The notes under the pieces are model-generated. The model was not told the origin of the DNA. It saw only the letters and a program-made list of their open reading frames with translations, and ran no database searches. From contig CAYQPR010000002.1 of assembly GCA_964419925.1 (NCBI GenBank), positions 2,002 to 66,001 of the forward strand: a DNA stretch of 64,000 bases. Direction: 5' to 3'. The stretch comes from Candidatus Woesearchaeota archaeon. Lineage in GTDB: Archaea > Nanobdellota > Nanobdellia > SCGC-AAA011-G17 > GW2011-AR20. Positions 3,807 to 53,840 of the stretch are shown piece by piece. Every line of letters starts with the position of its first letter. Positions within the stretch are counted from its first letter, which is position 1. The position numbers and the translations under genes were made by a program.

Positions 3807-4492
3807 ATGAATTATTAGTTAAAGACAAAGAAATTGTAATTCCGGGACAAGAATTAGCAGATAGTATGGAATATCTTCCAAGCCACGGAGCATTTAGAGA
3901 AGGAAATAAAATAATCTCAAATTATTTAGGATTAGTAAGTATCAATGAAAGATTCATAAGGGTTATTCCATTAACAGGAAAATATGTTCCAAAAGTTAAT
4001 GATACGGTTGTAGGAAGGGTAGTTGATATCGGATTTTATGGATGGACAATTGATCTCGGATGTGCATATAATGGGGTTCTAAGCATAAGAGAAACCGCAG
4101 ATTTCATTGAAAAAAATGATGATTTAACAAAATATTATGATTATGGGGATTTAGTCGTTGCTAAAATTGTCAAAGTGACAAGACAAAAATCTGTTGATTT
4201 AAGTACAAGAGGACCTGGATTAAGAAAATTAATTGGAGGAAAAGTAATTGAAGTTACTCCAAGCAAAGTTCCAAGAATGATTGGAAAACAAGGAAACATG
4301 ATTGGGATGATTAAAGAAAAAACAGGTTGCAATATGTTAATAGGACAAAATGGAAGAGTTTGGTTAAAAGGAGAAAATACTGAAAAAGAAATTTTCGTTA
4401 CAAAGATTATTTTAAAAATAGAACAAGAGTCACATACAGAAGGATTAACAGATAAAATAAAAAATATGCTCGAGGAAAAAAATGACGGATAA
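3803..4492 (+). CDS. rrp4: exosome complex RNA-binding protein Rrp4 (S1 + KH)
   Basis: S1 domain (VVGRVVDIGFYGWTIDLG) followed by a KH motif (IGKQGNMIGMIKEKTGC). Start and stop overlap with neighbours. Confidence 0.8.
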   Translation: MNELLVKDKEIVIPGQELADSMEYLPSHGAFREGNKIISNYLGLVSINERFIRVIPLTGKYVPKVNDTVVGRVVDIGFYGWTIDLGCAYNGVLSIRETADFIEKNDDLTKYYDYGDLVVAKIVKVTRQKSVDLSTRGPGLRKLIGGKVIEVTPSKVPRMIGKQGNMIGMIKEKTGCNMLIGQNGRVWLKGENTEKEIFVTKIILKIEQESHTEGLTDKIKNMLEEKNDG

Positions 4493-9417: not shown

Positions 9418-10695
9418 TTATGGTGTTAACCTATCTCGATCCCTTGCAAACAAAACCGCTTCCCTAATATTATCTAACTTTAATAATGTCATAGTAAATC
9501 TTTCTAAACCAATTGACCATCCAGAATGCATCGGAGCTCCTGTTCTAAAGCTATCAACATAAAATTCAAAATTATCCGGATTTAATTTTTTATCTTTTAA
9601 TTGTTTTATTAAAATCTCGGGAATGTGAACGCGTTGTCCTCCAGAACTTATTTCAACTCCACCATACAAAGCATCAAATCCCTTACTCAACCTCTCTCTT
9701 TTATCTAAACTTTTTGGAAAAATATAGAATGGTTTTAATGTAGAAGGCCAAGAATGGGTAAATACAATCATATCCGGATACATTTCACATAATTTTCTTT
9801 CAGATTCAGGTGTAAAATCTTCTCCAATTTTTAAACCAACAAGTTTAATTGCTTCATCATAACTTAAGTATTTTGCTTTTGGAATTTTCAATTTTAAATT
9901 TAAATTTTCTAATTCATCTTTACATTTTTCAATTACATTTTTAACAATAAATGCAACACAATCTTCTAAATATTTCATAACTTTAAAATCATCTGCAAAG
10001 GCAACTTCAATATCCATTTGTCTTGATTCATTCAAGTGTCTTATTGTATTATGTTTCTCCGCTCTCCAAACGGGAGTTATTGTAAATACCCTTTCTAAAG
10101 AAATTGCACATAATTGTTTATATAATTGAGGACTTTGTGCTAGATAAGCTTTTTTCTCAAAATACTTAACTTCAAATAACTCAGTTCCACCCTCGGAAGC
10201 ACTTGCAATAATGCTTGGAGGTTGTATCTCAATAAAATTTAATTTTCTAAAAAATTCTCTAAAAGAACTTGAAATTTCGCTTTGAATTTTAAATATTGCC
10301 TTAACCTTTTTCTTCCTTAAATCTAAACTCCTATGTTCTAATCTCGTGCTTAAATCAGTAATGATATCTTTATCTTTTTCATAAACTTGTATTGGAAGAT
10401 TTTCAGCCTTATTCAATAACTCTAATTCATCAACACTGATTTCAAAATTATTAATTGTTAATTCAGAAGATGTTAATTTAGCTTCTTTTATTTTTCCCCT
10501 AATTGAAATAACACTTTCTAATGTTAATTTCTCATCAAAACCTTTAGCTTCATTTTTTATAACACATTGAACGATTCCAGTTATATCTCTTAAAAGAATA
10601 AACTTGGCTTTGGGTAATTCTCTAATATCATGAACCCAACCTTTCAATAAAACTTCCTTTTTATCTTTAAGTTCATTAACGTAGCTTCTTTCCAT
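9418..10695 (-). CDS. aspS: aspartyl-tRNA synthetase (archaeal type, class IIb)
   Basis: GWVHDIRE OB domain, then WRAEKHNTIRHLNE...DIEVAF and GGQR class II motifs. The HNTxRHLNE region is typical of archaeal AspRS. Confidence 0.7.
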   Translation of the reverse strand: MERSYVNELKDKKEVLLKGWVHDIRELPKAKFILLRDITGIVQCVIKNEAKGFDEKLTLESVISIRGKIKEAKLTSSELTINNFEISVDELELLNKAENLPIQVYEKDKDIITDLSTRLEHRSLDLRKKKVKAIFKIQSEISSSFREFFRKLNFIEIQPPSIIASASEGGTELFEVKYFEKKAYLAQSPQLYKQLCAISLERVFTITPVWRAEKHNTIRHLNESRQMDIEVAFADDFKVMKYLEDCVAFIVKNVIEKCKDELENLNLKLKIPKAKYLSYDEAIKLVGLKIGEDFTPESERKLCEMYPDMIVFTHSWPSTLKPFYIFPKSLDKRERLSKGFDALYGGVEISSGGQRVHIPEILIKQLKDKKLNPDNFEFYVDSFRTGAPMHSGWSIGLERFTMTLLKLDNIREAVLFARDRDRLTP

Positions 10696-15822: not shown

Positions 15823-17229
15823 CTATTTTTTATTTATTAATTCTATTAACTTCTTGCCATCAATTTTACCTTTATATTTTGACATTAACATCCCCATCAA
15901 GGCATTTACGCTTAGTTCTTTATTTTTAGATTTAAGTTCTTTAATTTCTTTTTCAATTTCATTTAAACTAACAGATTTATAATCTTCAAGATTAATTTTT
16001 TCATTTTTACTTAATTTAACAAAAATTTCATTAACAACATCTTTTGTTATTTTACCTTTATCCAATAAATCTAAAACATAATCTAAACGTTTATTATTAA
16101 AATTACTAACTAAAATACTTGCTAATAAACCAGAACTAATCTCATTATACTTTTTAGAATAATCATTAAAATCTATCTTACTATGGATCATTTCAGAAGC
16201 CAGTTCATTACTTAATCCATATCTTTCTTTTAATTTATTTATCTTATCTTCAATCAGTTCAGGGATTTTAACATTCTCCAATAATTCTTTACTAACCTCT
16301 ATAGTTGGAATATCCGTATCCGGGTACATCCTTGCACTTCCGGGCAAAGGTCTCAAAAATGAGGTTGTCCCGTTTTCATTCGCCTTTCTTACCTCTTCTT
16401 CAACTTTTTTATCTTTTTCAACTAAACTAAACTGCCTTTGAATTTCATAATCAATTATCTTAGGCATTGTTCTTAAATCCTGAAAACCTTTTATCTCAAC
16501 CCTTGATCCATCTAAAATACTTAAATTAACATCCTGTCTTATTGTTCCAATTCCCCTTAAAATATCAGAAAAACTTCTTAAGATCATTCCTAATTTTTCA
16601 GCAGTTTCCTTTGCACCATCAGGGGTTTTAATGTCTGGCTTAGTCATTATCTCAATTAAAGGAATTCCCTGCCTTGATAAAGAATAATAAGTTTTATTTT
16701 CTTCATTTTTCTCAATTTTACATGCATCTTCCTCTAAACATAGACTTGCAATCTTAACCTTTCCAAAAGAAGTTTCAATAAACGAATCTTCACTTTCATA
16801 ACCAACTAACATTGTTCTTTGAAAAGCGCTACAAGCACTCCCATCCGTAATTATCTTTCTCATAACATAAATTTCTTTAGGAATGTTTAATCTAAACAAT
16901 TTAGCTAAAGATAAAGCCGTAACTAGTGCATCTTGATTAACCTGATATGGTGGCTGTTCATCACAATCGACTAAACAATATTCTCCTTTATAACCGTGAT
17001 AAATAAAATCTTTATTTTTAGATTCTTCAAATTTAGCTGCAACATCAACTTTTCCAGTTTCACCTGAAGAAGCTCTTAATTTCCTTTTAAATTCGATATC
17101 CAATTCTTTTTCTTCAAATTTAGTAGAGCAGTTGCAGAATAACTTTTTATCTGAAAGTTGCTGATGAATCTCAAGTCCAATCTTCAAGTTTAAATCCTTA
17201 TAGTCAAACATTTTCAATATCCTCATCAA
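15823..17229 (-). CDS. gatE: Glu-tRNA(Gln) amidotransferase subunit E/B-family (GatE-like, short form). The likely start is the Met at 17211.
   Basis: N-terminus YKDLNLKIGLEIHQQL...KLFCNC is the GatB/E signature. It is paired with gatD on the same strand. Confidence 0.7.
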   Translation of the reverse strand: MMRILKMFDYKDLNLKIGLEIHQQLSDKKLFCNCSTKFEEKELDIEFKRKLRASSGETGKVDVAAKFEESKNKDFIYHGYKGEYCLVDCDEQPPYQVNQDALVTALSLAKLFRLNIPKEIYVMRKIITDGSACSAFQRTMLVGYESEDSFIETSFGKVKIASLCLEEDACKIEKNEENKTYYSLSRQGIPLIEIMTKPDIKTPDGAKETAEKLGMILRSFSDILRGIGTIRQDVNLSILDGSRVEIKGFQDLRTMPKIIDYEIQRQFSLVEKDKKVEEEVRKANENGTTSFLRPLPGSARMYPDTDIPTIEVSKELLENVKIPELIEDKINKLKERYGLSNELASEMIHSKIDFNDYSKKYNEISSGLLASILVSNFNNKRLDYVLDLLDKGKITKDVVNEIFVKLSKNEKINLEDYKSVSLNEIEKEIKELKSKNKELSVNALMGMLMSKYKGKIDGKKLIELINKK

Positions 17230-17710
17230 TAATTTTAACTATTTTAGTAATATTATTTACAAAAAGTTTTGCATTTTTTAATGAATCTTCAGCATATTCC
17301 TTATTTGCCTGCGAAATTGTTTGATAAGTAAATAAACCTCTTTTAAATTTCAAATCTTTAAAAATTTCAAGCAAATGATCTGCCCTTATAATCATCTTTT
17401 GATAAATTTCAAGAAGTTTCACATCTATGATTCTGGTCTTAACAAAATTATTATCAAATTCATCATAAGTCTTTTTATGAACTTCAGGAAATGTTGTTTT
17501 AATATCTTTAGTTAATAAAATTGCCTTTGCTGAGTAAAATATCGCATAATAAGAATGAGAAATAACTGCACTGTAAAAACTAATCTCTAAAGGTATTTTC
17601 AAAAATTCTTTTTTCTTGTTATCATTACTTATATCTCTAAGCGTTTCAGCGATTATTAATTCATTTTCAGATCGATCAAGAAAATTTTTTGTTGTTAAAT
17701 CCATTCTCAA
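17204..17710 (-). CDS. HEPN-domain protein (toxin of a HEPN/MNT pair)
   Basis: All-helical 168-aa protein with the ISHSYYAIFYSAKAILL helix typical of HEPN. It overlaps the MNT gene and the gatE start. Confidence 0.55.
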   Translation of the reverse strand: MRMDLTTKNFLDRSENELIIAETLRDISNDNKKKEFLKIPLEISFYSAVISHSYYAIFYSAKAILLTKDIKTTFPEVHKKTYDEFDNNFVKTRIIDVKLLEIYQKMIIRADHLLEIFKDLKFKRGLFTYQTISQANKEYAEDSLKNAKLFVNNITKIVKIIDEDIENV

Positions 17711-18305
17711 TAACCTCTTGCATTAATTTAATATAAATCTGTCCTCCAGTTAATATAATGAAGTTTCTTACTATCCCTTTACCATAATTAGCTTCATTAT
17801 TTAAAAGCATTTCCTTAAACTCAGAATATTTAAAAACATATAAATGTATTTGTGGAATATTCATTTCTGCCTTAAAGGATAGTTCAGCATAAACTCTTTT
17901 AGGTTCAAACAAATCATTGATAAGCACAACAACATCAAGATCAGATGTTTTTGTAAATTTTCCGTTTGCATAACTACCAGTTATAATAAAAACATAATCC
18001 TTATAAGAAATATTGCTCATAAACTCTTGTAAATCTCGATAAGGTAAACTATCCTTATGCCAACCATAATACTCTAAAACAAAACCTGCAAAAATTCTTG
18101 ATTTTACTATAAAATTTAATGAGTAAACCGAGAGATTACCTACTTTTTCTAATAGTAATATTTTTTCTTTTAATAAATTCTTAATTACCTTATCAACATA
18201 GCTTTTTGATTTCTTTTTTGAAGAATTTTTTAATTCTGTAAAAGTATATTTTTTCCAAGGTTCTTTTGCAAATAAATATAATAATTCTGAATCTTTTTTT
18301 AGCAT
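17676..18305 (-). CDS. minimal nucleotidyltransferase (MNT) with N-terminal winged-helix domain (antitoxin partner of HEPN)
   Basis: GSYANGKFTKTSDLDVVVL is the GS...DxD polymerase-beta-type nucleotidyltransferase motif. It overlaps the HEPN gene. Confidence 0.7.
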   Translation of the reverse strand: MLKKDSELLYLFAKEPWKKYTFTELKNSSKKKSKSYVDKVIKNLLKEKILLLEKVGNLSVYSLNFIVKSRIFAGFVLEYYGWHKDSLPYRDLQEFMSNISYKDYVFIITGSYANGKFTKTSDLDVVVLINDLFEPKRVYAELSFKAEMNIPQIHLYVFKYSEFKEMLLNNEANYGKGIVRNFIILTGGQIYIKLMQEVIENGFNNKKFS

Positions 18306-18309
18306 AGTA

Positions 18310-18351
18310 ATTCCCTATTTTTAGGATTACTATTCCCTATTTTTAGGGTTA
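18310..18351. promoter_or_regulatory. Tandem operator-like repeat: two 20-nt units (attccctatttttagg[a/g]tta), each holding the palindrome CCCTA-TTTT-TAGG(G). Unit spacing is 22 bp, and they sit between a TATA-like box (atataaatat, 18351..18360) and the MNT start codon.
   Basis: Read directly in the sequence. Unit 2 is a perfect palindrome. Confidence 0.6.
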
Positions 18352-18373
18352 TATAAATATTTCGATTCAAAAA

Positions 18374-19666
18374 CTAATCTAAAAACTCTTTTGTTAAATG
18401 ATCATTAATTTCGCCACGTAAATTTTTACCAATTAAACCTTTAACTTCTTTAGGATTATAATTTCCTAACAACCAAGCTAACTTAACAAAAGCAACTTCT
18501 GGTAACATATCTTCTCCAGAAATAATCCCAATTTCTTGTAAATCCCTCCCTTTAGAGTAAACATTCATGTTAACCCGACCAAATAAACATTGAGAAGTCA
18601 TCACCACAACCATACTTTTATTTAAATCTTGCAAAGCTTTCTTAATCTTAGCATGTTCCTTAGTTTCATTATCAATAACATCTCCAGGGGTATGACCCAA
18701 TCCGGTTCCTTCAATGATCAAACCCTTATAACCCTTGTAAGCTAAAAATTGATTAGCGGTCATATTAATCGTAATTTTAATCAAAGCAACTTTTTCTTCA
18801 AATTTATCTTTAATTACTAACTTTTCTCCCTTTCGTTTATAATCTTCCTTAATGAAATTTATATTTTTAGTTCTATAATCAACTTGTGCAATTACATTAT
18901 CATTAATTGGCTTAAAGGCATCTCTTCTAGAGGTATGCATCTTACGAGTTTTACATGCTGGAAAAATTGAACAGGTTTTATCATTTATTGAATCATGCAT
19001 ACATATTGCAACTCCAGAAAAATCAGTTTTAGTTATAAACAAAGAAGCACAAACTAAATTCATCGCAGCATCACTTGAACCCCTATCAGAACTTCTTTGA
19101 GATGCCACCAAGATTACAGGAACCGGACAAGATTCTAAAACAAAACTCAAAGCAGCACTTGCAACAGCTAAATTATCAGTTCCCATTCCAACAATTACGC
19201 CCTCAACCCCAGATTTAATTTCATTTTCAATCTCCTTAGCAAGAACACCAAAATGTTTAAATCTTAAATCATCACTCCACATTTTTCTAACAAGTTTACT
19301 TTTAAAGTTTGCAATCTCCTTAAGTTCAGGAAAAATAGATAAAAATTCTTCAGGAGTAAACTTTGAAATTACCCCTCCGGTCTCATAATCTACCTTAGAA
19401 GCTATCGTTCCACCGGTGTGTAAAATAGAAATGGTTTTTAATCCTTTTTTAAAATCAACTTTTTCTTGATTTTCTTTTTTTTCAGAAATTTTTTTTATTA
19501 AATTAATTTTTTTTATTTTATTTTTTTCAATTCCTAAATTGTATCCAGAATTTAATTTTAAAGTTAAAATTTCTTTATTTGTCGACGGCAAAATTGTTCC
19601 TTTCAAATTTTCTTTTTCAGAAAAAATTTCAACGTAATCACCGATTTTATAATTTTCTTTTTTCAT
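18374..19666 (-). CDS. gatD: Glu-tRNA(Gln) amidotransferase subunit D
   Basis: C-terminal L-asparaginase-like domain (HTGGTIAS, GMGTDNLA). The N-terminal small domain is typical of GatD. Confidence 0.8.
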   Translation of the reverse strand: MKKENYKIGDYVEIFSEKENLKGTILPSTNKEILTLKLNSGYNLGIEKNKIKKINLIKKISEKKENQEKVDFKKGLKTISILHTGGTIASKVDYETGGVISKFTPEEFLSIFPELKEIANFKSKLVRKMWSDDLRFKHFGVLAKEIENEIKSGVEGVIVGMGTDNLAVASAALSFVLESCPVPVILVASQRSSDRGSSDAAMNLVCASLFITKTDFSGVAICMHDSINDKTCSIFPACKTRKMHTSRRDAFKPINDNVIAQVDYRTKNINFIKEDYKRKGEKLVIKDKFEEKVALIKITINMTANQFLAYKGYKGLIIEGTGLGHTPGDVIDNETKEHAKIKKALQDLNKSMVVVMTSQCLFGRVNMNVYSKGRDLQEIGIISGEDMLPEVAFVKLAWLLGNYNPKEVKGLIGKNLRGEINDHLTKEFLD

Positions 19667-21787: not shown

Positions 21788-22150
21788 TTATTTTACAAAT
21801 TCTACATTCTTCATACTTTTGAATTCCTTATCTCCAGTTAAGAATTTCATTTCATTTTCTGTAGCAATAATATATCCCAAAGCATCAACATATGAAATAT
21901 TATTTTTCTTATTCTTTAATTTAAAATCTGAGGCTAAAAAAATCCATTCATCTTTTATTCTAATCAACAAAGAATAAAAAGTATAAAAAACTTCTTTAGC
22001 TTTATTTCCATCATTCTCTTTTAATATATTATAATATAGTTCATATAAATTAAGCAATGTTGTAAAAACCTCGTGATCAAGATATTTTTTATAACTTTCA
22101 TTGCCCTTAACAATCTCAATCAAAGCATAAGTATCAAGAAAGAATCTCAT
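21788..22150 (-). CDS. vapC: PIN-domain toxin VapC
   Basis: FFLDTYALIE (first catalytic Asp) ... VDALGYIIATENEMKFLTGDKEF. The start overlaps the vapB stop (ATGA). Confidence 0.75.
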   Translation of the reverse strand: MRFFLDTYALIEIVKGNESYKKYLDHEVFTTLLNLYELYYNILKENDGNKAKEVFYTFYSLLIRIKDEWIFLASDFKLKNKKNNISYVDALGYIIATENEMKFLTGDKEFKSMKNVEFVK

Positions 22151-22362
22151 TTAGTCCACTCCTTTCTTAATTCATCCTTTACATCTTGAGCGTTAATCTT
22201 CCATTTTTTTAAAAGCCCAAATGCATTTTTAACAAGAATCTTTTTTCTCAATTCAAACATCACTTCTTCACCAGGTTTTAAATTTTCTCTGACCATAATC
22301 TCTCGAGGAACCACTATTCCAAATGAATTTCCCCACCTTTTCAATTTAGTTCTGAATTCCAT
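22147..22362 (-). CDS. vapB: AbrB/SpoVT-type antitoxin VapB
   Basis: KRWGNSFGIVVPREI swapped-hairpin barrel motif. 71 aa, directly upstream of vapC. Confidence 0.75.
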   Translation of the reverse strand: MEFRTKLKRWGNSFGIVVPREIMVRENLKPGEEVMFELRKKILVKNAFGLLKKWKINAQDVKDELRKEWTK

Positions 22363-23905: not shown

Positions 23906-24943
23906 ATGAAGGTATTAAACAAAAACGAATTTAAAGAAAAGATCGATTTAGATCTTAAAGATAAAAAAATTCTAAAATTATTAAGTATAAATTCAAGATT
24001 TCCATTAACTAAAATCTGTAAATATATAAGGTTAACAAGAGATGCAGTAAATTATAGAATAAAGGGGTTGGAAGAGAAAAATATAATAACTGGATACAGA
24101 ACTTTAATTAATTTAAAAAAACTAGGCTATTCCTCTTATCATATTTTTATAGAATTACATCCAAATCGTGAAAAAGAAAAAGAGTTAATTGATTTTTTTA
24201 AAAAAAATGAAAATATAAATGCAATAATAAAATATTCTGGAAAATTAGACTATGAAATAGCCTTAGTTTGTAAAACATTTGAAGAATTTGATAACGTCTT
24301 TAATAAAATAATCAATAAATATGAAGTTAAAAACTATGAAATCCTAATAATATTAAATACAATAAAGAGTTCATCATTTCCAGAAAGTTTATTGAATGAA
24401 AAGATACCTATTGAAAATAAAAAAAATGACGGAAGTTTTTTTAAAAATTTTATCAATGCAAAAAACACAGATTTTAAACTAGATAAGGCCGATATAAAAA
24501 TTCTTAATCTAATTTCAAATGATGCAAAAATCTCTTTAACCGAATTAAGCAAAAATACAAGCTTGAGCTTGGATGTAATTTCTTATAGAATTAAGAAAAT
24601 GATAGAAAGTAAAATAATTCTCGAATTCCGTCCAGTAATAAATTACAATAATTTAGGTTTTTCAGTTTATACACTTTTATTAAGTTTACAAAATCTAAAC
24701 GATAAAAAAGAAATCGAACTTATTGAATTTTTTAAAAACAATAAGAATATTTTATGGGGTGTTAAAACAATAGGCAAATGGAACCTATTAATATATATTC
24801 TAACAAAAGACGAGCAAGAGTTTCATTCAACAATTTCAGAAATTAAAAATAAATTTTCAAGCATAATCAAAACATATGAAACACTATTAGCAGATGAGGA
24901 ATACAAATACACTTATTTCCCGGAAGTTTTAAGTAAAATCTAG
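23906..24943 (+). CDS. tandem-duplicated Lrp/AsnC-family transcriptional regulator (two HTH + RAM-like repeats in one chain)
   Basis: Repeat 1 is KKILKLLSINSRFPLTKICKYIRLTRDAVNYRIKGLEE. Repeat 2 is IKILNLISNDAKISLTELSKNTSLSLDVISYRIKKMIE. Confidence 0.6.
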   Translation: MKVLNKNEFKEKIDLDLKDKKILKLLSINSRFPLTKICKYIRLTRDAVNYRIKGLEEKNIITGYRTLINLKKLGYSSYHIFIELHPNREKEKELIDFFKKNENINAIIKYSGKLDYEIALVCKTFEEFDNVFNKIINKYEVKNYEILIILNTIKSSSFPESLLNEKIPIENKKNDGSFFKNFINAKNTDFKLDKADIKILNLISNDAKISLTELSKNTSLSLDVISYRIKKMIESKIILEFRPVINYNNLGFSVYTLLLSLQNLNDKKEIELIEFFKNNKNILWGVKTIGKWNLLIYILTKDEQEFHSTISEIKNKFSSIIKTYETLLADEEYKYTYFPEVLSKI

Positions 24944-47760: not shown

Positions 47761-47835
47761 CGGGCCTGATGGGATTTGAACCCACGATCTTCAGCTTAGA
47801 AGGCTGACATCCAATCCAGGCTAGACGACAGGCCC
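47761..47835 (-). tRNA. tRNA-Arg (anticodon TCT), no intron
   Basis: Acceptor GGGCCTG/CAGGCCC. Anticodon arm TCAGC-CTTCTAA-GCTGA. T-arm GTGGG-TTCAAAT-CCCAT. Discriminator G. Confidence 0.75.
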
Positions 47836-51395: not shown

Positions 51396-53840
51396 ATGTA
51401 TAACTTTAAAGAAATAGAAGAAAAATGGCAAGATAAATGGGAAAAATCAAAAATATTTAAAGTTAAATTAGATAATAAAAAAAAGAAGTTCTATAATTTA
51501 GAAATGTTCCCGTACCCCTCAGGTGCCCTGCACATGGGTCATGTAAGAAATTATTCAATCGGTGATGCATATGCAAGATTCAAAAGAATGCAGGGTTATA
51601 ATGTTCTTTATCCAATGGGTTATGACGCTTTTGGTTTGCCAGCAGAGAATGCGGCTATAAAAAATAAAATAAATCCAAAAGATTGGACATTTAACAATAT
51701 AACGATAATGAAAGAACAGCAGATGCAATTAGGCTTAAGTTACGACTGGGATAAAGAATTAGCAACATGCACATCAGAATATTATAAATGGAATCAGTTT
51801 ATATTTCTAAAATTTTATGAAAAAAATCTTGTTTATAGAAAAGAAGCTTTAGTTAATTTCTGTAATTCATGTAAAACCGTTTTAGCAAATGAACAGGTTA
51901 TAAACGGAAAATGTTGGAGATGCAAAAACGAAATTGAGTTAAAAAATTTAGAACAATGGTTTTTGAAGATTACAGAATATGCTGAAGAATTATTAAACGA
52001 TTTAGACAAATTAGACTGGCCTGAAAAGGTTAAGATAATGCAAAAAAATTGGATTGGAAAAAGTGAAGGAACCCTAATTAAGTTTCAATTAGAAAATTCA
52101 AAAGAATATTTAGAAGTGTTCACAACGAGACCCGATACACTATACGGAGTAACATTCGTTACAATGGCTCCAGAAAATCCCAAAGTTGCTGAGTTAATTA
52201 AAAATCATAAAAACAAAGAAAGTATTGAAAATTTTATCAAAAAAGTTATCAACGAAGAAAAGTTTTCAAGAACAGCAGAAGATAAAGAAAAATATGGAAT
52301 TCCATTAAATAAAAATGTTATTCATCCATTAACCAATGAAAAAATTCCAATTTACTTAGCTAACTTTGTTTTACCCGATTATGGAACTGGAATTGTAATG
52401 GGTGTTCCAGCCCATGATCAAAGAGATTTTGAGTTTGCAAAAAAGTATAAGTTACCTGTTAAAGTTGTAATAACTCCAAAAGATAAAAAATTAACAGATT
52501 TAAAAGAAGCTTATTTAGGTGAAGGAATTTTAATTAATTCAAATAAATTTAATGATTTAGAAAACAAAAAAGGCGTTGAAGAGATCACTAAACATTTATC
52601 TGGATTAAAACTTGGAAAAAGAGAAATTCAATATAAATTACGTGATTGGTTAATTTCAAGACAAAGATATTGGGGAACGCCAATTCCTATAATTTACTGT
52701 AACAATTGCGGAATTCTTCCAGAAAAAAATCTTCCAGTTAAATTGCCTGAAAATGTTAAGTTTACTGGAGAAGGAAATCCACTTAGTTCCTCAAAAGAGT
52801 TTATTAATGTAAAATGTCCAAAATGTAATAAACAAGCCAGAAGAGAAACAGACACCATGGATACTTTTTTTGACTCCTCTTGGTATTATTTAAGATACTG
52901 CGATGTAGACAATGATAAACTACCTTTTTCTAAAAAAAATGTTAATTACTTTATGCCCGTAGATCAATACATCGGCGGAATAGAACATGCAATATTACAT
53001 TTACTTTATTCAAGATTTTTCACAAAAGCATTCAGAGATTTAAAACTATTAAATTTTAATGAACCGTTTAAAAAATTATTAACACAAGGGATGGTGCTAA
53101 AAGATGGAGAAGTGATGAGTAAGAGCAAAGGAAATGTTGTTGATCCTAGAACAATAATTGAAAAATACGGAAGCGATTCATTAAGAACTTTTATTTTATT
53201 TATAGCTTCTCCAGAAAAAGAATTCAATTGGAGTGATGATGGTATTGAAGGAATTTTTAAGTTTTTGAATAGAGTTTATTCCTTATTAGATAAGATAAAT
53301 AAAAAAAATGATTTAATTGTTGAAAGCAAATTAAATAAATTGATTAAAAAAGTTACAGAAGAAATTGAAAATTTCAAATATAATAACGCAATAATTTCCA
53401 TAATGGAATTTAGTGATTATATAAAAGACAAGAATTATGATAAAAATACTTTAACGAAATTAATTTTATTGTTTAGTCCATTTTCACCTCACCTTGCAGA
53501 AGAAATGTTTTCAAAATTAGGAAACAAAGGATTTGCTTCTTTAGAAAAATGGCCAAAATGCGACGAGAAGAAAATTAATGAAAACTTGGAGAAAGAAGAA
53601 GAAATTATTGAAAAATTAATTCAAGATATTAAAAATATTAAAAAATTAGCAAATATTGAAAATCCAGAAGTTTACCTTTATTGTATTCCAAAAGAAATTG
53701 ATTTGTATGAGAAAAATAAAGATAAAATTAAAGATTGTAAAAACATTAAAATTTATGCTGTTAACGACAAAAATAAGTTTGATCCAGAAAATAAATCTTC
53801 TAAAGCTAAATTAGGAAAACCTGCGATATATTTAAAATAA
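51396..53840 (+). CDS. leuS: leucyl-tRNA synthetase, bacterial-type
   Basis: FPYPSGALHMGHVRNYSIGDAYARFKRMQGYNVLYPMGYDAFGLPAENAA (bacterial LeuRS HMGH region) and VMSKSKGN (KMSKS). 814 aa. Confidence 0.85.
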   Translation: MYNFKEIEEKWQDKWEKSKIFKVKLDNKKKKFYNLEMFPYPSGALHMGHVRNYSIGDAYARFKRMQGYNVLYPMGYDAFGLPAENAAIKNKINPKDWTFNNITIMKEQQMQLGLSYDWDKELATCTSEYYKWNQFIFLKFYEKNLVYRKEALVNFCNSCKTVLANEQVINGKCWRCKNEIELKNLEQWFLKITEYAEELLNDLDKLDWPEKVKIMQKNWIGKSEGTLIKFQLENSKEYLEVFTTRPDTLYGVTFVTMAPENPKVAELIKNHKNKESIENFIKKVINEEKFSRTAEDKEKYGIPLNKNVIHPLTNEKIPIYLANFVLPDYGTGIVMGVPAHDQRDFEFAKKYKLPVKVVITPKDKKLTDLKEAYLGEGILINSNKFNDLENKKGVEEITKHLSGLKLGKREIQYKLRDWLISRQRYWGTPIPIIYCNNCGILPEKNLPVKLPENVKFTGEGNPLSSSKEFINVKCPKCNKQARRETDTMDTFFDSSWYYLRYCDVDNDKLPFSKKNVNYFMPVDQYIGGIEHAILHLLYSRFFTKAFRDLKLLNFNEPFKKLLTQGMVLKDGEVMSKSKGNVVDPRTIIEKYGSDSLRTFILFIASPEKEFNWSDDGIEGIFKFLNRVYSLLDKINKKNDLIVESKLNKLIKKVTEEIENFKYNNAIISIMEFSDYIKDKNYDKNTLTKLILLFSPFSPHLAEEMFSKLGNKGFASLEKWPKCDEKKINENLEKEEEIIEKLIQDIKNIKKLANIENPEVYLYCIPKEIDLYEKNKDKIKDCKNIKIYAVNDKNKFDPENKSSKAKLGKPAIYLK

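Follow-up and report, generated by a model that had tools for sequence, protein, structure and literature searches.

A winged-helix-fused Class II HEPN/MNT module with a conserved putative double operator between gatD and gatE of a Woesearchaeota archaeon

Class II HEPN/MNT modules and the gatD–gatE locus

Two-gene modules that pair a HEPN protein with a minimal nucleotidyltransferase (MNT) have been divided into two classes. As defined by Yao et al. in 2020 (PMC7641770), the HEPN component of Class I belongs to Pfam family PF01934 or PF08780 and carries an RX4HXY motif, and that of Class II belongs to PF05168, is without RX4H and keeps the conserved tyrosine; the MNT retains GS-X10-DXD in both classes, and tyrosine AMPylation by the MNT is described for HEPN/MNT systems in the same work. 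Class II modules were first predicted by Makarova et al. in 2009 (PMC2701414). No biochemical study of them was available as of 2020 (PMC7641770), and our literature search found no later characterization. Here we describe a pair of this kind in a stretch of 64,000 nucleotides from a Candidatus Woesearchaeota archaeon (contig CAYQPR010000002.1, positions 2,002–66,001; hereafter the window, to which all positions refer). The pair lies between gatD and gatE, the genes for subunits D and E of the Glu-tRNA(Gln) amidotransferase. It is an inherited, winged helix-turn-helix (wHTH)-fused variant of the Class II module, and we think it likely that it forms a self-regulated two-gene unit placed directly upstream of gatE in the co-directional gatD–gatE unit.

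The arrangement of gatD, MNT, HEPN and gatE reported in a first-pass annotation of this DNA is real. The four genes are co-directional on the minus strand, in the order gatD, a 68-nt spacer, wHTH–MNT, HEPN and gatE. The earlier position of gatD (19666..18374) stands, but gatE most likely starts at ATG 17211 and not at TTG 17229, an extension taken from the open reading frame (ORF) list; the ATG gives a protein beginning MFDYKDL..., a start conserved among relatives. Likewise, the HEPN start is most likely ATG 17704 rather than the TTG 17710 of the ORF-list extension. Both gene overlaps are as had been described: the MNT and HEPN genes share 29 nt (17704..17676), and the HEPN stop TGA (17206..17204) lies inside the ATGTTTGA of the gatE start, an overlap of 8 nt. 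The features of the locus are as follows.

18374..19666, minus strand: gatD, Glu-tRNA(Gln) amidotransferase subunit D, 430 aa (NCBIfam NF003217 and Pfam)
18369..18373, minus strand: T5 tract directly 3′ of the gatD stop, a possible weak archaeal termination signal (sequence reading)
17676..18305, minus strand: wHTH–MNT gene, 209 aa (PF01909, alignment, AlphaFold model, Foldseek)
18105..18305, minus strand: winged helix of the MNT, residues 1–67 (AlphaFold model and Foldseek)
17934..17978, minus strand: minimal nucleotidyltransferase motif GS-X10-DXD, residues 110–124 (family alignment)
17714..17717, minus strand: Shine-Dalgarno-like GAGG at −13 to −10 of the HEPN ATG, within the 3′ end of the MNT gene (sequence reading)
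17204..17704, minus strand: HEPN gene, 166 aa, UPF0332/AF0298 type (PF05168, alignments, model, Foldseek)
17324..17341, minus strand: R122-x4-Y127 loop of HEPN (alignments of 64 and 35 homologues)
17221..17224, minus strand: Shine-Dalgarno-like GAGG at −13 to −10 of the gatE ATG, within the 3′ end of the HEPN gene (sequence reading)
15823..17211, minus strand: gatE, Glu-tRNA(Gln) amidotransferase subunit E, 462 aa (NCBIfam and Pfam)

The HEPN and MNT assignments hold, since both proteins exceed their Pfam thresholds and are backed by fold searches. The MNT matches PF01909 with 34.7 bits (cut-off 21), and its motif reads G110-S111-(YANGKFTKTS)-D122-L-D124. In an alignment of 33 family members that are 46–66% identical to the window protein, G110, D122 and D124 do not vary, and the conservation of S111 is 90% or higher. 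A profile search of the PDB matches MntA (5yep, E 2e-4). In the AlphaFold model (predicted local distance difference test score, pLDDT, 92), three helices and a β-hairpin at the N-terminus (residues 1–67) precede a C-terminal nucleotidyltransferase, and this H-H-H-β-β winged helix is modeled at pLDDT 90–96. Foldseek returns the MarR-family protein ZitR, the AspA centromere-binding protein and Sso10a for the N-terminal part, all with probability 1.0, and MntA (7bxo), HI0073 (1no5) and a Legionella MNT (8xeo) for the C-terminal part. The N-terminal winged helix that had been proposed together with the GS...DxD motif is therefore supported at the fold level and, by the model, the first gene product of the pair has a DNA-binding domain, as is found in autoregulated toxin–antitoxin (TA) operons.

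The HEPN protein matches PF05168 with 32.5 bits (gathering score 22) and belongs to a family of 771 clusters at E ≤ 1e-3, many of them named 'UPF0332 family' by JGI. Its model (pLDDT 87) has AF0298 (2hsb) as its best Foldseek match, with a template-modeling (TM) score of 0.83, and further matches to ST0689, TT1696 and AMPylated HepT (7ae6); AF0298 is also matched by profile (E 7e-4). HEPN RNases carry Rx4-6H in the loop after helix 3 (PMC3710099). At this place the window protein has R122-G-x-F-T-Y127. R122 and Y127 are 98–100% conserved in the alignments of 64 and 35 homologues, and R11, H50 and H76 are invariant. Because the loop reads R-x4-Y and not RX4H, toxicity is unproven; the 'toxin-antitoxin pair' of the first-pass annotation stands as a PF05168/PF01909 module, whereas its toxin label is an analogy and not a demonstrated property.

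On every feature that we compared, the pair fits Class II HEPN/MNT. It shares the Pfam families, an MNT gene upstream of and overlapping the HEPN gene, GS-X10-DXD in the MNT, and a HEPN with the conserved tyrosine and no RX4HXY. Class II modules are abundant in archaea. The window MNT differs from them in its N-terminal winged helix of ~67 aa, and its family differs in having a conserved two-palindrome operator on an archaeal promoter; we found neither described in the HEPN/MNT literature. Membership in Class I (type VII) is contradicted by the lack of any PF01934 or PF08780 match and of the motif histidine in the window HEPN, and the NCBIfam equivalog model for MntA (NF047752, MntA_antitoxin) gives the window MNT 21 bits against a cut-off of 60, over the GS...DxD segment only. 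The type VII MntA/HepT pair nevertheless shares with the window pair the MNT fold and GS-X10-DXD, the gene order, the four-helix HEPN fold and an R-containing HEPN loop at the equivalent place; the differences are the PF05168 family of the window HEPN and a tyrosine where the catalytic histidine is expected.

The Shewanella MntA binds and represses its own promoter at two palindromes (PMC4621449), a layout similar to the double operator described below. No DNA-binding domain is recognizable in the bacterial MntA, whose two palindromes differ from each other, whereas the window module has a dedicated wHTH and two near-identical units. For the HEPN protein, the AF0298/UPF0332 proteins AF0298 (2hsb), ST0689 (1wol) and TT1696 (1ufb) are the best matches in both sequence and structure, but the window protein exceeds them by ~35 aa and contains a conserved loop of its own, EKWKRGxFTYxTIPQANKEPAE; the three solved proteins are likewise without assigned function. 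Finally, the MNT matches the PADLOC candidate defense family PDC-M05A over residues 7–172, covering wHTH and MNT (E 2.8e-9). The HEPN has no PADLOC match, so membership in PDC-M05 is not established, and the PDC systems themselves are candidates only.

GatD and GatE both exceed the curated NCBIfam equivalog cut-offs. GatD matches NF003217 with E 1e-145 and 486 bits (cut-off 310) and contains the Pfam domains GatD_N and Asparaginase N and C. GatE matches NF003107 with E 1e-141 and 473 bits (cut-off 456), in two separate stretches, and TIGR00134 with 436 bits (cut-off 320); its Pfam domains are GatB_N and GatB_Yqey. There is no PF02938 match and therefore no GAD/AspRS-like insertion domain, which canonical GatE of ~620 aa has. 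GatE homologues come as forms of 455–480 aa without PF02938 and forms of 605–633 aa with it; the short form is the norm among the Nanoarchaeota and Woesearchaeota homologues, and some Woesearchaeota retain the long one.

The putative double operator and its promoter

The 68-nt spacer between gatD and the MNT gene reads TAG-TTTTT-gaatcgaaata-TTTATATA-a-CCCTAAAAATAGGG-aatagtaa-TCCTAAAAATAGGG-aattact-ATG, from the gatD stop to the MNT start, and contains the following features.

18350..18357, minus strand: TATA box TTTATATA of the MNT–HEPN promoter, with a GAAATA stretch resembling a TFB recognition element (BRE) before it (genome promoter consensus and position weight matrix)
18335..18348, minus strand: operator unit 1, CCCTA-AAAA-TAGGG (CCCTAAAAATAGGG), perfect arms (sequence; conserved in homologous loci)
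18326..18328, minus strand: predicted transcription start of the MNT–HEPN(–gatE) transcript (TATA-to-start rule; position weight matrix gives ~18326)
18313..18326, minus strand: operator unit 2, TCCTA-AAAA-TAGGG (TCCTAAAAATAGGG), one outer mismatch (sequence; conserved in homologous loci)

Both putative operator units are 5+4+5 inverted repeats with the core CCTA-N4-TAGG. The two units start 22 bp apart, and 7 nt separate the TAGGG of unit 2 from the MNT ATG. The units had been described as two 20-nt tandem repeats 22 bp apart, the second of them a perfect palindrome. The tandem palindromic design and the 22-bp period hold, but the exact repeat consists of two 16-mers, CCTAAAAATAGGGAAT, at 18347..18332 and 18325..18310, and it is only the unit at 18348..18335 that has perfect arms. 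The repeats do lie just downstream of a TATA-like box, since TTTATATA ends one base upstream of unit 1. Within the 64 kb the double unit is confined to a single site, reported in two overlapping registers, compared with 0.03 expected from shuffles. A search of the same 64 kb for other operator targets found no second double unit, and the sole other match to the 16-mer has three mismatches, which is chance level.

Comparison with homologues strengthens the case for an operator considerably. An MNT-profile scan of metagenome contigs yielded 80 further loci (referred to by L numbers where they need to be told apart), from which we took the 110 nt before each MNT start; units of the form CCTA-N4-TAGG with at most one mismatch were then counted in 77 non-identical upstream regions. 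At least one unit is present in 74 of the 77, and two units exactly 22 bp apart in 63 (~80%), compared with 0.005 loci in composition-matched shuffles. The repeats are therefore not a product of chance. All unit spacings in the homologous loci are 22 bp (66/66), 43 of the 63 loci with a pair have a TATA-like 8-mer 1–9 nt before unit 1, and the last unit mostly ends 6–11 nt before the MNT ATG. The core is flanked mostly by C...G or T...A, and a few loci (L042, L080 and L091) have three or four units. The homologues sit in differing neighborhoods yet share this upstream design; the cis-architecture is conserved throughout the protein family irrespective of genomic neighborhood. The absence of the repeats from relatives carrying the insertion, in combination with an internal gatE promoter, had been named as counting against the first-pass reading; the repeats are present, and the operator hypothesis is strongly supported by the comparative evidence.

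The operators also vary with the protein. When the homologues are divided by operator type (TAGGG versus TAGGA), nine of the ten most strongly associated MNT alignment columns fall within the 67-residue wHTH, for which a rough binomial estimate gives p ~3e-4. Three of the nine (residues 34, 38 and 40) belong to the predicted recognition helix and three (58, 59 and 60) to the wing; the others are residues 6, 11 and 23. At one locus (L001:4482-5604), a paralogous pair of an HTH_24–MNT and a HEPN protein lies next to a member of the family and has a perfect 16-bp palindrome of its own, TATATCATATGATATA, just after a TATA-like sequence. This suggests that each wHTH–MNT subfamily may have its own operator.

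The position of the operators relative to the transcription machinery was estimated from the window's own genes. Of these genes, 35 are preceded by a gap of 60 nt or more, and in about half of the 35 the best TTTAWAWA-like 8-mer ends 20–24 nt before the ATG, which indicates mostly leaderless mRNAs and a TATA-to-start distance of ~22 nt. (Examples of the leaderless type are the genes at 9418-10695, 23906-24943 and 51396-53840; genes with leaders carry GGAGG-like motifs.) The TATA box of the MNT gene ends 44 nt before its ATG, so transcription is predicted to start near 18326-18328, and a position weight matrix (PWM) built from 17 of the window's leaderless promoters places it at ~18326. On this prediction, unit 1 occupies the stretch from the TATA box to the start, and unit 2 covers roughly positions +1 to +14 of the transcript. 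Palindromic operators over the core promoter, conserved together with the protein family, are again a property of autoregulated TA operons.

Archaeal repressors usually hinder recruitment of TFB or RNA polymerase, and MDR1, Phr and LrpA bind between the TATA box and the start site. In the model that we favor, two wHTH–MNT dimers, possibly bridged by HEPN, would bind both units. The 22-bp phasing corresponds to two helical turns, which would put both sites on the same face of the DNA and allow the two dimers to bind cooperatively. With unit 1 filling the TATA-to-start spacer and unit 2 covering about +1, TFB/RNA polymerase recruitment would be blocked and the operon autorepressed. By analogy with type VII MntA/HepT, the MNT would nucleotidylate the conserved HEPN tyrosine, for which Y127 is the candidate, and this modification would keep HEPN inactive.

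The proposed regulation resembles that of autoregulated type II TA operons, of which MqsRA is one with tandem palindromic operators, as cited in PMC4621449. Here too the first product has a DNA-binding domain and two similar palindromes lie over the core promoter, and the negative autoregulation by promoter occlusion expected of such operons is predicted for the window module. The differences are that the window promoter is an archaeal TATA/BRE promoter and that the DNA-binding domain is fused to the MNT enzyme instead of to a disordered toxin-neutralizing tail.

Expression of gatE and the history of the gatD–gatE interval

A self-regulated module in this position bears on the expression of gatE. 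We find no promoter for gatE where the leaderless genes of this genome have theirs (PWM score −0.3), and gatE overlaps the HEPN stop and has a GAGG before its ATG, from which we take gatE to be an internal cistron that is likely co-transcribed with the module. The GAGG occurs at −13 to −10 before both the gatE and the HEPN ATG, the same motif at the same spacing, and three of the related loci (L100, L101 and L103) have a strong ribosome-binding motif, AAGGTGAT, at the equivalent place in the 3′ end of HEPN. In the more distant L013, L014 and L019, gatE has its own TATA box ~25 nt upstream, whereas the window has no such site. The sequence most likely encodes a polycistronic MNT–HEPN–gatE transcript from the module promoter, supplemented by read-through from gatD, from which gatE would be translated. 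Oligo-T tracts act as archaeal terminators, but the T5 after gatD is not diagnostic, as T-runs are frequent in DNA of 27.6% GC. Control of gatE by the module is plausible on these grounds.

The intervals in related genomes were surveyed by a GatD-based scan of one-genome-per-species contigs, which gave 11 loci, ten of them with both genes; gatD and gatE are co-directional in all ten. The gaps between the two genes are as follows.

L018: 4 nt; L010: 17 nt; L019: 174 nt
L011: 441 nt, NUDIX
L014: 524 nt, and L013: 561 nt, each with a 50-aa ORF and an MJ1316-domain ORF
L009 (AR20): 1110 nt, EamA and MJ1316
L012: 1588 nt, NUDIX, EamA and MJ1316
L015: 1733 nt
L016: 3409 nt, Class I MntA/HepT pair and P-type ATPase

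Five GatE relatives chosen blind are without the module: gatD and gatE are adjacent in L105 and L108, and the gap holds NUDIX in L107, MJ1316 in L110 and other genes in L109. The expectation that gatD and gatE are usually adjacent is thus true of some relatives (1–27 nt apart in L018, L010, L105 and L108), which shows the pair to be an insertion into a co-directional gatD–gatE unit, but the gap commonly holds other cargo. Across L009–L019 and L100–L110 it ranges from 1–27 nt to 3.4 kb and contains NUDIX, EamA, isochorismatase, MJ1316, an AsnC-like gene and a P-type ATPase. To judge from these comparisons, the interval is a tolerated slot for variable cargo. In a more distant Woesearchaeota metagenome-assembled genome (L016:6386-6997), a Class I MntA/HepT pair (PF01909 and PF01934) directly follows gatD; its HepT belongs to Class I by its PF01934 score of 100.8 bits and its RDKLIHAY motif, and it is unrelated to the window pair.

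A frequent occupant of the slot is an ORF of 75–81 aa with the PF04457 domain ('MJ1316 RNA cyclic group end recognition'); many relatives have it between gatD and gatE in translational coupling, often with gatD. It has an ATGA overlap with gatD in L047 and, in L012, overlaps gatE by the same 8 nt as HEPN does in the window. The ORF was located at the following places.

L047:3705-3932
L021:1-57
L103:1277-1504
L110:1161-1388
L009:8169-8396
L012:6106-6342

L010 has an apparent 17-nt remnant of its 3′ end. We considered whether the ORF had been relocated elsewhere in the window and rejected this, as tblastn found no MJ1316-domain ORF in the 64 kb (best E 0.4). The arrangement in the relatives represents a conserved link between an RNA-end-binding domain and GatDE.

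How often the module itself occupies the slot was followed in two ways. In an MNT-based sample of 59 loci whose sequence continues for 300 nt or more beyond HEPN, gatE directly follows HEPN in only three lineages: the window (with L020, 96.6% identical), L021 and L047. The neighbors are unrelated in 56 of the 59 loci, most commonly other helix-turn-helix (HTH)–MNT/HEPN pairs, and elsewhere in the family they include defense genes (MmeI-type restriction-modification, AbiE and Cas4-like). Three further gatE-linked lineages were found by cross-matching HEPN and GatE search matches: L100, with the order gatD–NUDIX–EamA–isochorismatase–MNT–HEPN–gatE; L101/L102; and L103/L104, with EamA–MJ1316–MNT–HEPN–gatE. 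The MNT–HEPN pair abuts gatE in six lineages (the window, L021, L047, L100, L101 and L103), and the insertion is not an isolated case. The window, L100, L101 and L103, which are the four with the ATGTTTGA gatE start, have the same 8-nt overlap between HEPN and gatE. When lineages are tallied within the group defined by GatE at least ~60% identical, plus L047 (GatE 52% and GatD 74–75% identical), six have the module and ten do not, and none of the ten sampled blind carries it. In a neighbor-joining (NJ) tree of GatE, lineages that carry the module are interspersed among those that lack it.

Identities within the module are not uniform. The modules of L047, L100, L101 and L103 are mutually 79–94% (MNT) and 87–93% (HEPN) identical. 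The window MNT is only 51–53% identical to those of this clade and groups instead with modules that are not linked to gatE (L022, L003 and L001; 65–66%), but the best matches of the window HEPN anywhere are the gatE-linked copies (64–69%). In sliding windows, identity to the linked clade rises from ~40–50% in the wHTH to 75–82% in the C-terminal half of HEPN, while identity to the MNT relatives falls from 60–74% to 55–58%; L021 shows the same switch, with 85–92% in the C-terminal half of HEPN. The module thus appears to be a mosaic, in which the HEPN half has been kept next to gatE and the operator/wHTH half comes from another branch. The likeliest history is one old insertion before gatE, then exchange of operator and wHTH, with several losses; alternatively, the cassette may have spread among relatives by recombination through the conserved flanks. 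A reading in which the gatE-linked copies had been acquired independently two or more times, drawn from another NJ tree, was revised after more linked loci and the mosaic pattern had been found.

L047 stands apart from the group in that its GatD is 74–76% and its GatE 48–59% identical, while its MNT–HEPN matches the modules of L100, L101 and L103 at 79–90% identity. Recombination breakpoints inside the locus, or a faster evolution of GatE, may account for this. In L032, the region at ~3890-3920, upstream of the MNT at 4001, resembles a tRNA gene's 3′ end (GGTTCAAATCCCGG...), and at least one copy of the module may adjoin a tRNA gene. We found no relatives carried on mobile elements among the viral contigs of IMG/VR (MNT alignment scan), and inspection of the module's flanks for target-site duplications or short direct repeats revealed only a 5-nt chance match.

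The closest pair of loci gives an indication of current constraint. Between the window and L020, differing codons number 13 synonymous and seven non-synonymous in the MNT gene, where 552 nt contain 21 nucleotide differences, and 12 synonymous and four non-synonymous in the first 222 nt of gatE, with 20 nucleotide differences. The HEPN gene (17204-17704 versus L020:554-1054) has three nucleotide differences in ~500 nt. From these comparisons MNT, HEPN and gatE are intact and constrained, and the near-invariance of the HEPN DNA could reflect recent recombination or an extra constraint at the nucleotide level.

Alternative roles of the module

Several observations count against a self-regulated Class II unit that also supplies gatE. 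Every functional step of the model is inferred. HEPN is without the RX4H(XY) RNase motif, having R-x4-Y and no histidine at the motif position, and may be no RNase toxin at all. The covariation of operator and wHTH is confounded by phylogeny, in that there are two main clades, and is supportive, not decisive. The palindromes would also form small RNA hairpins. Most of the gatE mRNA may come from polymerase that reads through from gatD. Finally, the PWM detects promoter-like sites inside HEPN, with predicted starts at ~17234 and ~17333, that score in the 99.5th percentile, which is about chance density in DNA of 27.6% GC; an internal promoter of gatE is conceivable.

The alternative that survives best is that the pair is not a TA system and instead constitutes a domesticated two-subunit nucleotidyltransferase or regulator, in which the wHTH–MNT is a ligand- or nucleotide-responsive factor and HEPN a non-catalytic partner, as in kanamycin-nucleotidyltransferase-like enzymes. 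The operators would function as before, with no growth-arresting toxin. The loss of the catalytic histidine of RX4-6H fits this proposal, as does the retention of R122-x4-Y127 in 98–100% of homologues, and HEPN domains have been recruited as substrate-binding or regulatory partners of MNTs (Anantharaman et al., PMC3710099). HEPN members in which the histidine is replaced have, however, a conserved histidine elsewhere, as noted by the same authors, and an active site of another kind could be made up of the invariant R122, H50 and H76. As of 2020 no Class II module had been validated as a TA system (PMC7641770), the module has been kept beside gatE across lineages whose GatE proteins differ by 30–48%, which is long for a purely selfish element, and synonymous changes outnumber non-synonymous ones in the MNT of the window and L020. 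The family nonetheless has the hallmarks of a mobile TA-like element: neighbors vary in most of the sampled loci, it clusters with MNT/HEPN pairs and defense genes, its MNT gene comes first and overlaps the HEPN gene, and the MNT matches PDC-M05A. On balance we regard domestication as unlikely, though it deserves the most attention of the alternatives.

A second possibility, which we consider doubtful, is that the module is functionally integrated with GatDE and tRNA(Gln), either by setting GatE levels apart from GatD or by acting with the MJ1316 protein on the ends of tRNA or other RNA. The association with gatE in six lineages, four of them with the same 8-nt overlap, would be explained, as would an unrelated Class I MntA/HepT pair in the same gap in L016 and the translational coupling of the MJ1316 ORF between gatD and gatE. 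HEPN RNases leave 2′,3′-cyclic phosphate ends (PMC3710099), which fit an RNA-cyclic-end ORF in the same gap, and the near-invariance of the HEPN DNA relative to MNT and the 5′ part of gatE is also consistent with a function at this locus. But the great majority of the family is nowhere near gatD or gatE, none of the ten blind-sampled relatives has the module in the gap, and the gap also holds plainly unrelated cargo (EamA transporter, NUDIX, isochorismatase and P-type ATPase). A single old insertion, spread by descent or by recombination through the flanks, explains the recurrence with no functional link.

A more specific form of this proposal is restricted to a sub-clade of Woesearchaeota, and we give it a slightly better, though still slim, chance. 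Here MNT–HEPN would be a regulatory front end of gatE that gates the supply of Gln-tRNA(Gln), or would act together with MJ1316 on tRNA(Gln) or RNA ends. The autorepressed promoter, perhaps responsive to nucleotides or stress through MNT/HEPN, together with translational coupling, would set GatE apart from GatD. If this were true, there would be a functional link between a TA-like module and translational fidelity rather than a passenger insertion; if the module is only a passenger, the locus is a well-documented but ordinary insertion.

Very improbable is the proposal that the 22-nt repeats act as RNA hairpins in the 5′ leader or the gatD 3′ untranslated region, affecting translation, stability or termination, and not as DNA operators. 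The 53-nt stretch does fold into two hairpins (−14.9 kcal/mol, z = −3.3 against shuffles), the second of which pairs sequence up to the start codon, and the TAGG half-site of the last unit is mostly 6–11 nt before the ATG, the place of a ribosome-binding site. Any palindrome folds as RNA, however, and unit 1 lies upstream of the predicted start and would be outside the module's own transcript. The exact 22-bp phasing, the tight placement after the TATA box and the covariation with the wHTH point to recognition of DNA by protein; the units are conserved in loci with no co-directional upstream gene, whereas the additional base-pairing with the start codon is peculiar to the window and not conserved; and there is no Rfam family at the repeats. 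A scan of the window with Rfam at gathering thresholds found one tRNA only (47761..47835) and nothing in the module region.

Under the favored reading of a self-regulated Class II unit, the family offers a testable design: a winged helix fused to a nucleotidyltransferase, a 14-bp palindrome repeated at exactly 22 bp over an archaeal core promoter, and natural variants of operator and protein specificity. Pairs of HEPN and MNT genes rank among the commonest two-gene modules of archaea. The position of the module before an essential gene in several uncultured DPANN lineages makes it a case for the entrenchment of selfish or defense modules in core operons, and raises the question of whether modules entrenched in this way end up in control.

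Two further groups of genes near the locus are recorded here. A second TA-like pair at 21788-22362 (minus strand), ~2 kb upstream of gatD and past ftsZ, comprises a 71-aa antitoxin of the MazE/AbrB type and, overlapping it, a PIN-domain protein of 120 aa, and L101 and L103 have a similar MazE/AbrB–PIN-like pair just downstream of gatE. A few kilobases downstream of gatE, on the same strand, are two class-IIb aminoacyl-tRNA synthetase paralogues (tRNA_anti-codon and tRNA-synt_2, Asp/Asn/Lys-RS type), one at 9418-10695 (minus strand) and the other the next gene downstream (at or below ~8466), which may be relevant to indirect aminoacylation.

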